From IMG/VR virus record IMGVR_UViG_3300031555_002223: a DNA stretch of 64,000 nucleotides. One strand, 5' to 3'. The translations under genes and the position numbers were made by a program. Of this stretch, positions 32,416 to 40,940 are shown in pieces; the stretch's first letter is position 1, and each line of letters begins with the position of its first letter. The stretch is from a virus. The notes under the pieces are model-generated. The model made no database searches and was not told where the DNA came from. It saw only the letters and a list, made by a program, of their open reading frames with translations.

Positions 32416-32480
32416 TGCAAGAAAAATTTTGCTAGGGTGTATGAGCCAAAACTCGGGGCCGCACGAAGCTGGCGGAAATG
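32416..32480. repeat. conserved ~60-nt intergenic element, copy 1
   Basis: TGCAAGAAAAATTTTGCTAGGGTGTA..AACTCGGGGCCGCACGAAGCTGGC; second copy at 40877..40940 with identical core GCCGCACGAAGCTGGC. Confidence 0.55.
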
Positions 32481-32481
32481 A

Positions 32482-32523
32482 GAAAAACCCCTGACTCAAA
32501 TGAGTCAGGGGTTCGTTTTTTTT
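32482..32523. terminator. bidirectional intrinsic terminator
   Basis: CCCCTGACTCAAATGAGTCAGGGG hairpin with T-runs on both strands, immediately after the flotillin-like gene stop. Confidence 0.7.
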
Positions 32524-34045
32524 ATTCCTCAACAGGAGCGGGGATACCCTCACCATGGCCAGCGGCAATCTTACCGCCAAGGAAGCCAGTCAGCAGAGTC
32601 TTAAGGTCAATACCGAGAGACTCGGTCAGACCCTCAGAAATCTGAGTGGTGGAGTTGATGATATTGCCAGCCAACTTACTGGAGTCGTTGCCCAGCATGA
32701 CAATCTTGTCCACACCCTGATAGCCAGAACCGATAGCCTGTGCGATGGCGGGCAGCTGCTCAAAATACTTGGTAAGTACCTGCATCTGCATATCGGTCAT
32801 AGCGGCTTCGCCGTACTGCTTCATGGCCTCAGCCTTCTTCATCAGACCGTCAGCTTCTGCTTCCAGCTTTGCCTTGATGGCAGCAGCCTCAGCCTCACCC
32901 TTGGCCTTTTCTGCGGCAGCTTCTGCTTCGCCCTGAGCCTTAATAGCTTCAGCGAGTGCCATCTGCGCGGCCGCGCGCTTCTCAGCTTCCATCTGCTCAG
33001 CCTCAGCCTTCTTGGTACGGTCGAACAGCTCAGCCTCGGCCTGCTTCTGGACAGCATACAGACGAGCATCGGCAGCCTGCTGTTCAGCATACTTCTGAGC
33101 TTCTGCGGTCTTCTTGACCTCAGCTTCCAGGGCGCGCTCAGTGATTTCAACTTCGCGAGCCTTCAGCTCGATTTCCTTCTCCTGGCGTGCCAGGTTTGCG
33201 TTTGCGGTAGCAATTTCCTGCTCGCGACGCTGGTTCTCAGCCTCGATTCGCTTAGCGGCATCAGCTTTAGCCTGCTCGGTGTCAGCCTGCTTCTGCAGCT
33301 CAGCCTTACGGATAGCAAACTGGTTCTGCTTCTCGGCAATGTCGGTTGCAGCAGCCACCTTAGCGTCATTGGCCTGCTTGTCGGCCTCAGCCTGCGCAAC
33401 TGCGACTTCGGCCTTTGCCTTAGCAGCAGCGATAGAAGCTTCCTTACGAATCTTCTCGATGTTATCGACACCCAGGTCCTGGATTACACCGTTCTTATCA
33501 GAGAAGTTCTGAATGTTGAAGGTGGTCAGGTCGATACCCAGGTCGGCCAAGTTGGGAGAAACGTTCTCCATAACCAGTTCAGAGAAGGCCTTCTTGTCGC
33601 CGCGAATCAGAGACTCAAAGTTGGTCTGAGAAATGATTTCACGGATGTTACCTTCCAGAACAGGGATAACAATGTCTCGAATCTGCTGTACGCTGTAACC
33701 AGCGAACTTAGAAGCCGCAATCGCCTGGCGCTCGGGGTCCTTAGAAATACTCATGTTGGCAACGGCATCCACCAGAACGTGGATAGCGTCCTTGGTAGGA
33801 ATTTCGTTACGAGAAGTGAAGTCTACCTGGATGTTCTCCAGAGTCATCTTCTGAACTCGCTGAACCATAGGGATAACAAAGATACCACCGCCGGTCTTGT
33901 TCTTCACCTTGCCCATGCCGGATACAATCAGTACTTCGTTGGTGCCAGCGACCTTCCAGCAGCTCTTAATGAGAATGATAACAGCTACGATGGCCAGCAG
34001 AATTGCGCCAACAGTGGAGATTACGGGAATCAGAAAATTAAGCAT
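32522..34045 (-). CDS. SPFH/band-7 (flotillin-like) protein with long Ala/Glu-rich coiled coil
   Basis: N-terminal TM anchor; SPFH core; extended EA-rich heptad region. Confidence 0.75.
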   Translation of the reverse strand: MLNFLIPVISTVGAILLAIVAVIILIKSCWKVAGTNEVLIVSGMGKVKNKTGGGIFVIPMVQRVQKMTLENIQVDFTSRNEIPTKDAIHVLVDAVANMSISKDPERQAIAASKFAGYSVQQIRDIVIPVLEGNIREIISQTNFESLIRGDKKAFSELVMENVSPNLADLGIDLTTFNIQNFSDKNGVIQDLGVDNIEKIRKEASIAAAKAKAEVAVAQAEADKQANDAKVAAATDIAEKQNQFAIRKAELQKQADTEQAKADAAKRIEAENQRREQEIATANANLARQEKEIELKAREVEITERALEAEVKKTAEAQKYAEQQAADARLYAVQKQAEAELFDRTKKAEAEQMEAEKRAAAQMALAEAIKAQGEAEAAAEKAKGEAEAAAIKAKLEAEADGLMKKAEAMKQYGEAAMTDMQMQVLTKYFEQLPAIAQAIGSGYQGVDKIVMLGNDSSKLAGNIINSTTQISEGLTESLGIDLKTLLTGFLGGKIAAGHGEGIPAPVEE

Positions 34046-34074
34046 AAGTTTCTCCTTGTCTTGTTATTTAGTTT

Positions 34075-34644
34075 TCAAAGTTGAGCTACGCACTCATTAA
34101 CTTTCTCTTTCATTTCCTCAATGATTGCATCAATCTCGATGGGATAGCAGTCATGGGAATCAACGCCTACATGATACATAAAGGGCATATCATTGTAGAA
34201 GTTGCAGGTTTGATGGGTATGACCAAACAAATTTAGGGTACATTGCTTGAGCGACTCTTTCTCAAGGTTAGAGGTAATCGTTGGGTAATGGGACAGGTAG
34301 AAATGGTATCCTCGATGGTTGAGACGCAGTGCGTCATATACCTGAAGGCCTTTGGCTCGATAAGAAGCAGCTCGACTGTTCGTGTCGTGATTGCCGGCAA
34401 TAATAATCTTATTACCGTTCAGCTTCATAATCATATCCAGACCACCCAAGTCCTGCCCACCAAGCATCGCATCGCCAAGGATATATAGGGTGTCCTCAGC
34501 ACCTACAACTGAGTTAAAGCGACGAATAATCTCTTCATTCATCTCCGAAACTGAAGTAAATCCGCGTGCTTTCCAAATAAATTCTCTGTCATGGTTAAAA
34601 TGCAGGTCGCTCGTAAGCCAGATTTTTGCTGCGATAGTTCTCAC
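34075..34644 (-). CDS. calcineurin-like metallophosphoesterase
   Basis: GDAMLGG ... GNHD. Confidence 0.7.
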   Translation of the reverse strand: MRTIAAKIWLTSDLHFNHDREFIWKARGFTSVSEMNEEIIRRFNSVVGAEDTLYILGDAMLGGQDLGGLDMIMKLNGNKIIIAGNHDTNSRAASYRAKGLQVYDALRLNHRGYHFYLSHYPTITSNLEKESLKQCTLNLFGHTHQTCNFYNDMPFMYHVGVDSHDCYPIEIDAIIEEMKEKVNECVAQL

Positions 34645-35150
34645 CTCTTCTGCGTGTAAATGTGAATGGTAACATCCTTGAAGCCGAAAGAGTCGGGGAA
34701 CTCGCTGACAGTAGGGATACGAAATCCCTTAGCCATGTTTCTGATGGCACTGTTGGGAACTCGTGCAAGCCCCTCCCGCTGCAAATTGCGATTCAAACAC
34801 TCCGCGACAGGAGTGTTCATAACCTCAAACACCAAATGGGTGTTGGGGTCGGGCAGCAATTTGGAAAGCAGCTTAAAGCGAGAGCCAGGGGAGATATGAG
34901 TGGCATCCGCAAACACCACATCAATGCCGAGTTCCATACATTCGTTAATCTGCCGGATGAACTCCTCGAACACTTCATCTTCATGGGCGAAATAATCTTC
35001 GCCCTCTTTGAGCATGGAAAAACGCACAGCGTCGCGAGAAACAACAGCCGTAGTCTTGCGCTCCTCCTCGAGACAAGAGACCTCTTTCTCAATAAGAGTA
35101 GATTTTCCGCTGGCGGGGATACCCACCATTACTCTGAGTTCTTGCGTCAT
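34641..35150 (-). CDS. P-loop polynucleotide-kinase-like protein
   Basis: GIPASGKST Walker A; 169 aa; coupled to phosphoesterase genes. Confidence 0.55.
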   Translation of the reverse strand: MTQELRVMVGIPASGKSTLIEKEVSCLEEERKTTAVVSRDAVRFSMLKEGEDYFAHEDEVFEEFIRQINECMELGIDVVFADATHISPGSRFKLLSKLLPDPNTHLVFEVMNTPVAECLNRNLQREGLARVPNSAIRNMAKGFRIPTVSEFPDSFGFKDVTIHIYTQKR

Positions 35151-39502: not shown

Positions 39503-40239
39503 GATTCATAGTTCTGGAACTCAACAGACAGAGGCAGCTTACGCCACTCTTGCTCGAACTGGTCCCAGATAGTTTCAGTGCGCTCCATAACAACTCTCAT
39601 TGGTTGCTTTTGGTTCGCAATTTGCTGGACAAAACTCATGAACTGCGCTTCCAGCATTGGGCGCGGTCCAGCCATAGAGAACTTTTCGATGGGTTTGTTA
39701 CCGAGATAGACAGTGAAAATAACCTCAAAGGTTTCACCTATCATGTTAAAATCAATGAACATTATTCCACTCCCTTGTACGATACAACCCGCAGGTTCTC
39801 CAGTTTCTCAGAACAAACGGATTTACCTACCTGGATAGTTGCAAGCTTGTGCTTACGGTCAATGCCGATAATACGGCCCTCTTTGTCACGCTTGGTGCGA
39901 ACGATAGTGCCCTCGCAGACATAGGGTGTACCCATAGGTATTCCTCCTTTTGTTTTATATATACATATTAACATATATTTTGAGAAATATCAATCACGAC
40001 TTTCGGAAACGTTTTCCGTTCCACAATACCCGCAATAGCGATGGGCGTTGAGCATAGAACCGGACATTTCGGTTCTAGTATAGAAAAACTTCCCACAATT
40101 TGGACAGGTATACTTCACCCGCAGTTCTCCGATGCTGGGGCATAGGACTTCTGTTACCCAGCGGTTTGTGCGACATATACCCAAAGCTTCTAATTGTTCC
40201 GGGGTTAAACGCGCTTTCTTTCCGTTGATGCAGATATAG

Positions 40240-40815
40240 TTATCCATTTCTTTTACCTCCACGCTTTTTCTTACGCTCGGTTGCCTTATCAATGGTGCAA
40301 CGATGCAGAGAGTCAATCTTTGCAGCGGGGCCAGTCTTCATGAACTGGTTAAGGTTGATAGGTTCATACCCAATAACATCAGCACAGCAGTTCAAGTGCC
40401 GCGGACGCTTCGCTCCAGCGTGGTCGTGACCATGAAAGTTAAATGCCCAAGGTACATCCAAGGGCTCGTGAGAGAGAATGAACTTCTCTCCAATCACAAG
40501 AGGTCCCTCATAAATCTCGTCAAAGATACCCTCATAGTTAGTTCTTCCGCCGTCATGGTTGCCGCAGATAAGGATTTTGTATCCCTTGAGGCGCTTAGCC
40601 AATTCAATGTCACCCACGTCTCCAAGCAAGATAAGAGTATCTTTCTTGCCTACCTTGCTATTGATACGCTTGAGGTGCTCCTCGCTAGAGTAAGGACGAG
40701 GATGGCCCGCTTCAAGTTCTGCATCGTTAAAATGGGTGTCACTATAAATCCAAACCGTACCCTGCTTATGCCAGTGGTCAAAACATTTGTACAAACCAGC
40801 AATCATCGTTGTCAC
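40240..40815 (-). CDS. calcineurin-like metallophosphoesterase
   Basis: LGDVGD ... GNHDG. Confidence 0.7.
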   Translation of the reverse strand: MTTMIAGLYKCFDHWHKQGTVWIYSDTHFNDAELEAGHPRPYSSEEHLKRINSKVGKKDTLILLGDVGDIELAKRLKGYKILICGNHDGGRTNYEGIFDEIYEGPLVIGEKFILSHEPLDVPWAFNFHGHDHAGAKRPRHLNCCADVIGYEPINLNQFMKTGPAAKIDSLHRCTIDKATERKKKRGGKRNG

Positions 40816-40817
40816 AT

Positions 40818-40845
40818 CCTTTCTATATATATAATATCATATTAA
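40818..40845 (-). promoter_or_regulatory. conserved AT-rich promoter motif
   Basis: minus reading AATATGATATTATATATATAGAAAGG. Confidence 0.45.
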
Positions 40846-40876
40846 AAATAAAAATACAAAAAATCTACAAACCATG

Positions 40877-40940
40877 TTTTTGCGAGAAAAATTGCTAGCG
40901 GGTAATTGCTTGGAACTCGGAGCCGCACGAAGCTGGCAAT
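40877..40940. repeat. conserved ~60-nt intergenic element, copy 2
   Basis: TGCGAGAAAAATTGCTAGCGGGTA..AACTCGGAGCCGCACGAAGCTGGC; paired with copy at 32416..32480. Confidence 0.55.

Follow-up and report, generated by a model that had tools for sequence, protein, structure and literature searches.

The viral DNA analysed here, a stretch of 64,000 nucleotides (nt) from IMG/VR record IMGVR_UViG_3300031555_002223 (referred to as the window), raises the question of why a sequence of about 60 nt occurs twice in it, each time beside a transcription terminator, and what its function may be. A preliminary description had located the two copies at 32416-32480 and 40877-40940, and had suggested that their invariant core is either a protein-binding site or a small RNA. 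We propose, with a probability of about 55% and on the basis of sequence features, that the element is a promoter-upstream DNA module, in which a putative factor-binding site at about -100 to -77, combined with A/T tracts resembling an upstream promoter (UP) element or curved DNA, would tune two operons and double as a junction for the exchange of gene cassettes.

Two copies of a bipartite element

Both copies are present at the locations previously reported. Copy A spans 32411-32473 and copy B 40877-40937; each is ~62 nt long and consists of two near-identical blocks placed around a diverged spacer of 14-15 nt. In both, block 1 corresponds to GCCAGCTTCGTGCGGCYCCGAGTT and block 2 to CTAGCAA(A)(A)TTTTTCTYGCAAAA. 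The invariant core was recovered as the 16-mer GCCGCACGAAGCTGGC, which occurs exactly twice in the window (32458-32473 and 40922-40937), the chance expectation with up to three mismatches being about 0.3 matches. A third site, with two mismatches to this 16-mer (23494-23509, minus strand), lies within a gyrase/topoisomerase-like open reading frame (ORF) and was taken as a chance match. It is complementary over 13 nt to a hypothetical gene-strand RNA of block 1, for which we estimate a chance expectation of about 0.1.

When the window was compared with itself by blastn, 32413-32473 aligned to 40878-40937 with 79% identity over 62 nt (E = 1.3e-5), which ranks second among the non-palindromic repeats of the window. 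A hidden Markov model (HMM) of the element family, trained on the relatives described below with the window sequence excluded, gave two significant matches in the 64 kb, at 40877-40945 (E = 5e-7) and 32414-32477 (E = 7e-7), the next-best match having an E-value of 0.28. The repeat is thus real and both copies are true members of the family. Substitutions between the copies affect 2 of the 45 block positions and 9 of the 15 spacer positions (Fisher p = 1.5e-5).

The self-comparison also returned palindromes, one of 28 nt that is perfect (17379-17406) and one of 34 nt with 88% identity (29174-29207). Separately, a region at 51646-51760 on the minus strand, upstream of a promoter, contains GCGGCCGCCAGCTTAACCGATC...CCGCACGTCC and has the 10-mer CCGCCAGCTT in common with copy A; this region does not match the family profile, and the shared 10-mer is probably due to chance.

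Location between terminator and promoter

All genes around both copies are on the minus strand, and the features of both loci are therefore read in that orientation. They follow the same order, namely the upstream gene's stop codon, an intrinsic terminator, the element, a promoter of the sigma-A/sigma-70 type, a ribosome-binding site (RBS) and an ATG, with 15-27 nt between the element and the promoter. The reported position of the copies next to a strong hairpin, and between a terminator and a promoter, was thereby confirmed, the functional terminators being those of the minus strand, which is the gene strand.

At the first locus, the flotillin/SPFH gene is followed by an intrinsic terminator (32485-32514) with a stem of 13 base pairs (bp) and then TTTTTCTCATTTCC; this hairpin is bidirectional and, with a run of eight T on the plus strand, is terminator-like in that direction too. 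Block 1 of copy A (32450-32473) reads GCCAGCTTCGTGCGGCCCCGAGTT and, counted from the inferred start of transcription, occupies about -100 to -77. It is followed by a 14-nt spacer (32436-32449), conserved in length and not in sequence, and by block 2 with its tail (32413-32435), which reads CTAGCAAAATTTTTCTTGCAAAA and contains an A/T tract at -62 to -54. Additional A/T tracts are found at -48 to -45 and -39 to -35. The predicted promoter of operon A (32375-32404), TTGGAT-18-TGgTATAAT, was read from the sequence, and orthologous promoters align with it in register; its -35 box TTGGAT is at 32399-32404, and after an 18-nt spacer comes an extended -10 box, TGgTATAAT, with the -10 hexamer at 32375-32380. 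Downstream are an RBS (GGAG) and the ATG at 32345 of the first gene (31881-32345), which encodes 155 amino acids (aa) with an in-frame TAG at codon 63 and a predicted dsRBD-like domain followed by a helical hairpin. The next gene is PIN-PhoH (30568-31806).

At the second locus, the terminator (40948-40977) belongs to a gene for a 269-aa metallophosphoesterase (40960-41769) and consists of a 12-bp stem and then TTTTGTTTTATT, with no T-run on the plus strand. Block 1 of copy B (40914-40937) reads GCCAGCTTCGTGCGGCTCCGAGTT and is identical to that of copy A at 23 of 24 positions. The spacer (40900-40913) measures 14-15 nt, depending on where block 2 is taken to begin, and shows no sequence relationship to its counterpart in copy A, and block 2 with its tail (40877-40899) reads GCTAGCAATTTTTCTCGCAAAAA. 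The promoter predicted for operon B from its sequence (40831-40859) is TTGTAT-17-TGaTATTAT, in which the -35 box TTGTAT (40854-40859) is separated by a 17-nt spacer from the extended -10 box TGaTATTAT (-10 hexamer at 40831-40836). The module is 8 nt farther from the -10 box here than in copy A. The first gene of operon B (40240-40806, with its start placed at the ATG at 40806) encodes a phosphoesterase assigned to the phrog_547 family.

Most other promoters of the window sit directly against a terminator with nothing between them, so that the element represents an extra insert of ~62 nt in a common terminator-promoter cassette. The compact cassettes, on the minus strand, comprise a hairpin, a T-run, TTGAYT, 17 nt, TGnTATWAT, ATATAGAAAG and an RBS, as for example at 16289-16352, 18769-18832, 27801-27864, 36128-36200, 38135-38213, 44222-44285, 50815-50866 and 57934-57985. 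They are analogous to the promoter-early stem-loop (PeSL) motifs of T4-like phages.

Conservation in phages of the human gut

A megablast search with 11.5 kb against GenBank phages gave no match. By tblastn, distant relatives only were identified, namely Alicyclobacillus, Geobacillus and Bacillus phages and Phass-1, with 37-46% amino-acid identity in PhoH. The nearest cultured relatives by PhoH are large phages of Bacillota, and the host of the phage is probably a Bacillota species. The element was not found at the PhoH locus of Phass-1, and the exact 24-mer had no match in IMG/VR. All true matches to a degenerate block 1 pattern, searched for in metagenome and genome collections, were gut-metagenome phage contigs; those in soil and in bacterial genome bins were not accompanied by block 2 and were rejected as chance matches. 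Neither the exact 24-mer nor the block 1 pattern retrieved the phage itself from the collections that were searched.

The clade assembled from IMG/VR and the metagenomes consists of human-gut phage contigs of 75-190 kb that have their local gene order in common with the window: kinase, phosphoesterase, SPFH/flotillin protein, a gene of 136-155 aa, PIN-PhoH and lysin. In at least 12 sequence variants from such contigs, the module is found with a terminator on one side and, on the other, the promoter of the 136-155-aa gene. The flanking proteins of these relatives are only 40-57% identical, and the stems of their terminators are unrelated in sequence with the pairing kept, which argues that the blocks are under selection. 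The conservation of the element in related phages also rules out a chance duplication.

The gene upstream of the module varies and encodes a flotillin of 470-507 aa, an SPFH protein of 298-323 aa or a protein of 88 aa. Each relative contig contains a single module, compared with two in the window. Copy B is flanked by the 269-aa and 191-aa genes, whose homologues in the relatives are not accompanied by an element, and it is therefore peculiar to the lineage of this phage. The same two genes are 145 nt apart in the window and 4.7 kb apart in contig 3300045988_037140.

Spacing of the blocks and register to the promoter

The consensus of the family is (GCYAGY)NTCGT-N4-CYCCGAGTT(TCCG), followed by about 11 free positions and (GGCY)CAGCAAWTTTTT. 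The spacer from CCGAGTT to AGCAA measures 16-18 nt in every variant and is thus conserved in length and free in sequence. Block 2, YAGCAAWTTTTT, is the first in a series of A/T tracts at intervals of ~10 nt, and arrays of this kind are typical of intrinsically curved or UP-element-like DNA upstream of promoters. Tracts at -62 to -54, -48 to -45 and -39 to -35 are found in most orthologues, with one unit more in copy B and one fewer in the variant L240.

From CCGAGTT to the -10 hexamer, the distance is 76 nt in copy A and in four relatives (L024, L028, L113 and L023); another four have 77-79 nt (L022, L064, L114 and the hand-counted L251). The extremes are 67 nt in L240, also counted by hand, and 84 nt in copy B. 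The T-run between the hairpin and the module ranges from 7 to 11 T among near-identical contigs. Since this run and the upstream gene are variable and the distance to the -10 box is stable, the element travels with the downstream promoter. As would be seen with an operator, a short sequence is conserved in a mostly fixed register to the promoter, and the spacer, the terminator and the gap between module and promoter diverge.

The left edge of block 1 coincides with a change in sequence relationship in one pair of contig types. Downstream of CTCCGAGTT, contigs of the L025 and L113 types share 96-100% identity over a minimum of 650 nt, and they are unrelated farther upstream, starting ~15 nt before CTCCGAGTT. 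In this single case, the breakpoint of a recombination event is thereby placed at the left edge of block 1. The exchange replaced a flotillin cassette by a short-SPFH cassette, or the reverse.

Absence of a conserved RNA structure

The DNA was also analysed for features of an RNA gene. A scan of the whole window at Rfam gathering scores identified only tRNAs and the transfer-messenger RNA (tmRNA). Rfam scans of both copies by E-value reached at best 24 bits against thresholds of 48-65 bits, and the matches fell mostly on the terminator hairpin. Folded as a single sequence, the element alone was no better than its shuffles on either strand (z from +0.6 to -0.9), and where longer fragments had significant fold z-scores, the signal came from the terminator hairpin. 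RNAalifold analysis of 16 variants predicted no pairing on the gene strand and, on the plus strand, 3 pairs that are invariant, trivial and non-covarying. In the positive control, an alignment including the terminator, 11 of 11 hairpin pairs were recovered with compensatory changes and the element was still unpaired. The candidate helix that would join block 2 to block 1 pairs in 71.5% of cells across the family versus 69.4% after shuffling, the observed value being attained by 59 of 500 shuffles. Structure prediction thus finds no conserved fold in the element on either strand, and a structured small RNA is unlikely.

A proposed promoter-upstream regulatory module

Taken as a DNA-level regulatory module upstream of a sigma-A/sigma-70-type promoter, and not as an RNA gene, the element may be divided into two functional parts. 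The G+C-rich block 1, at about -100 to -77, would be the putative site of a sequence-specific DNA-binding protein encoded either by the phage or by its host. Block 2, at about -62 to -54, would open an array of two or three A/T tracts which, with their ~10-nt spacing, lead down to the -35 box and are putatively UP-element-like or intrinsically curved. Such tracts could position the bound factor, or the C-terminal domains of the RNA polymerase alpha subunits, relative to the polymerase. The module may in this way set the strength or the timing of two operons in a region of RNA-repair and auxiliary genes, operon A coding for the 155-aa dsRBD-like protein and PIN-PhoH, and operon B for the phosphoesterase and the products of the genes that follow. 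Its conserved sequence would probably serve as a homology patch for cassette exchange as well. Protein binding, a UP-like or curvature role and an effect on transcription are what we infer from the repeat, its conservation and its geometry.

Several observations weigh against such a module. The relative L217 has none, its terminator being followed immediately by a perfect TTGACA-17-TATAAT promoter, and L248 keeps block 2 with a degraded block 1, which indicates that the module is dispensable. For the 136-155-aa protein, the one neighbour present throughout, the predicted fold is dsRBD-like and not of a classical DNA-binding type. Apart from TCG-N8-CGA, block 1 contains no clear dyad or direct repeat, and an arrangement of two blocks 16-18 nt apart would equally suit a promoter. 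The helical phasing is not strict either, as the distances of 67, 76-79 and 84 nt correspond to offsets of -9, 0 to +3 and +8 nt; strict phasing of the module to the promoter was therefore abandoned in favour of an approximate one. The E. coli UP-element consensus, NNAAAWWTWTTTTNNNAAANNN, is A/T-rich and located at about -40 to -60. The main A/T tract of the element is ~4-5 nt upstream of this position.

Candidate regulators were considered as well. Compared by eye with the motifs of sigma-54, extracytoplasmic function (ECF) sigma factors, sigma-H/E/K/F/G, CcpA (cre), CodY, LexA, CIRCE, Spo0A (0A box), DnaA (DnaA box) and IHF, the blocks gave no convincing match, and the ACGA core agrees with the 0A box at only 4-6 of 7 positions. 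Autoregulation by the downstream protein was rejected, as a DNA-binding role finds no support in the 154-aa homologue, whose model is dsRBD-like and which matches no family.

Alternative explanations

The principal rival, which we consider unlikely, is a tandem promoter for an alternative sigma factor, which the phage may encode, with CCGAGTT as a -35-like and AGCAAWTTTT as a -10-like box. Transcription would then start ~45-55 nt upstream of the sigma-A start and serve expression at another stage of infection. The two conserved boxes with their length-conserved spacer of free sequence, close to the 17 nt of a bipartite promoter in every variant, would be accounted for, the second box is A/T-rich and would melt easily, the variable distance to the sigma-A promoter (67 to 84 nt) would suit independent action, and a protein of the distant relative L021 looks sigma-factor-like by eye. 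A sigma factor would, however, be expected to act at many promoters, but no further bipartite match was found in the 64 kb of the window and the collection scans gave one per relative contig; with one or two sites per genome, a dedicated operator suits the data better than a sigma-factor regulon. Moreover, the boxes fit no sigma consensus that we know of, the conservation of block 1 reaches 12-17 nt upstream of the putative -35 box, and the register of 76-79 nt to the sigma-A -10 box in most orthologues would be left unexplained. It is rather improbable, somewhat more so than a tandem promoter, that the element is a recombination linker only, conserved as a homology patch for cassette swaps and with no role in transcription. 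The breakpoint between the L025 and L113 types at the left edge of block 1, the different genes upstream of the module among relatives, the location of copy B at a junction that differs from that of the relatives and the arrangement of the two copies as direct repeats flanking 8.4 kb are all consistent with it, and PeSL-mediated shuffling has been documented (PMC2839356, PMC4122927). A homology patch needs no internal structure, but the element has conserved blocks, a free spacer of fixed length and a kept register to the promoter. The single copy in relatives also leaves the module unable to mediate within-genome exchange there, and conservation across lineages whose flanking proteins are ~40% identical indicates that something selects for the module.

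Readings of the element as an RNA or as an ORF are still less probable. A small or antisense RNA on the plus strand, which would run from a start in the A/T-rich promoter region to the neighbouring hairpin, is very unlikely in our view. In its favour are the bidirectional hairpin of copy A with its plus-strand T8, promoter-like hexamers on the plus strand near copy B, and a 9-bp helix that block 2 and block 1 of copy B can form. That helix is no better supported across the relatives than in the shuffles described above, and neither the trivial RNAalifold pairs nor the insignificant fold z-scores point to an RNA. No -35/-10 pair is conserved on the plus strand in the alignment of the relatives, no Rfam family comes near its threshold, and the plus-strand T-run is restricted to copy A, the relatives having AAAA/TT-type tails on that strand. 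The suggestion of the preliminary description that the plus-strand version ends in its own terminator accordingly applies to copy A and fails for copy B; and of the two functions it had offered for the core, a protein-binding site at the DNA level fits the data, whereas the small RNA has neither conserved fold, promoter and T-run nor an Rfam match to support it. Micro-ORFs were rejected on both strands. On the gene strand, block 1 and the sequence after it read ..ASxVxLRVSxRIGPAxF.., a frame opened by an ATG in the L064, L114 and L250 types and with codons (GCY AGY NTC GTN) that vary mostly at wobble or conservative positions. Such a peptide can hardly be entertained, however, as most variants have no start codon, among them L216, which is closely related to L064. 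The region lies downstream of the terminator and offers its T-run and no Shine-Dalgarno sequence, the frame is shifted or broken in L113 (7-nt difference) and L050 (1-nt insertion), and third positions make up 4 of the 8 variable positions of block 1, which is not significant.

Significance of the module

The promoter-upstream module favoured here represents a concrete cis-regulatory candidate in a clade of large, uncultivated, probably TAG-recoding phages of the human gut, in which, to our knowledge, nothing has been reported on the control of transcription. It precedes genes for PIN-PhoH, phosphoesterases and an RNA ligase, which are likely to act in RNA repair or counter-defence. It would also illustrate that a short regulatory module can stay conserved while the genes on one side of it are swapped, and that it can be copied to a second promoter. 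In practical terms it may serve as bait for its regulator and as a marker of cassette junctions, although the finding is a fairly ordinary one and implies no new principle. A bolder version, which we regard as doubtful, is that of a portable, autonomous cassette of ~62 nt that answers to a phage-encoded regulator or alternative sigma factor, times the RNA-repair and PhoH operons, moves between promoters and marks exchange junctions. If this were true, copy B would be a regulatory module caught in the act of passing to a second operon.

Neighbouring genes and probable TAG recoding

Members of the 136-155-aa protein family (P0001-P0059) are always encoded directly upstream of PIN-PhoH and have no Pfam or PHROG assignment. 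The AlphaFold model of a 154-aa homologue (predicted local distance difference test score, pLDDT, of 91) consists of a dsRBD-like alpha-beta3-alpha domain and then a long helical hairpin. It has no significant match in the PDB (best E = 0.03), and the weak fold neighbours of the family are Rv1738, Rv2632c and eukaryotic dsRBDs.

The two copies lie within a cluster of RNA-repair-like and NAD-related genes (29190-44213, minus strand), for which a role in counter-defence or tRNA repair is possible. Among these minus-strand genes are an RNA-ligase-like gene (38219-39502), an AAA_33/KTI12 kinase (34641-35150), with a polynucleotide-kinase-like P-loop protein also in the region, four metallophosphoesterases (34075-34644, 35213-35935 and, at copy B, 40240-40806 and 40960-41769), an RlaP nucleotidyltransferase (41766-42605), a cREC_REC domain protein (42606-42992), an NAD synthase (36187-36933) and a protein of the isochorismatase family (37308-37868), along with PIN-PhoH. 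In relatives, a Thg1-like gene is added to this cluster. The flotillin/SPFH protein encoded upstream of copy A (32522-34045, minus strand) has 507 aa and contains Ala/Glu/Lys-rich repeats of 33 nt (11 aa); relatives have at this position either a flotillin or a shorter SPFH protein.

In-frame TAG codons were found on the minus strand in PIN-PhoH (31504-31506) and in the 155-aa gene (32157-32159), and homologues have I or M at one of these two sites. The window encodes a tRNA with the anticodon CTA (50269-50359, minus strand; 91 nt), judged to have a long variable arm, and in-frame TAGs are also present in three relatives (L026, L027 and L001). Taken together, these observations indicate that the phage most likely reads TAG as a sense codon. 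TAG recoding has been described for gut phages (PMC10607447, PMC10879173). The region 48648-63588 on the minus strand contains 20 tRNA genes and a tmRNA gene (60197-60535) with the tag peptide DNSYFENHLAA.

Comparison with known systems

Like small RNAs that end at a terminator, the element is a short conserved intergenic sequence beside a hairpin; unlike them, it has no conserved fold, no promoter or T-run on the candidate strand and no match in Rfam.

Closer parallels are found among promoter-upstream regions. In phi29, the region bound by protein p4 upstream of the late A3 promoter combines an inverted-repeat site with bent DNA and activates a promoter devoid of a -35 box. By analogy, the element may likewise be a phage-specific site, centred at about -80 to -100, that acts with bent DNA on a promoter of the host sigma factor; it differs in that it contains no clear inverted repeat and in that a -35 box is present. 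UP elements and upstream activator sites are known from E. coli rrnB P1 with its Fis sites and from the A-tract-assisted promoters of Bacillus phages. The element resembles these in having an A/T tract upstream of the -35 box, with more tracts about every 10 nt, and a separate conserved site at -75 to -100 in a largely fixed register to the promoter. In contrast to them, its main tract at -62 to -54 is shifted upstream of the E. coli consensus position by the ~4-5 nt noted above, and block 1 is not known to match the site of any factor.

The PeSLs of T4-like phages are terminator-promoter motifs for which a role in the shuffling of gene cassettes has been proposed (PMC2839356, PMC4122927). The element differs from them in being an additional module of ~62 nt interposed between stem-loop and promoter, in occurring in one or two copies per genome compared with dozens of PeSLs, and in belonging to another phage lineage with hosts of another phylum. 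Its conserved part is neither stem-loop nor promoter, and the stems beside it are not conserved in sequence. At both loci of the window, however, a terminator stem-loop, an A/T-rich region and a sigma-70-like promoter form one intergenic unit as in PeSLs, and this unit similarly stands at the boundaries of exchangeable genes, with a breakpoint falling within it in the one case observed here.

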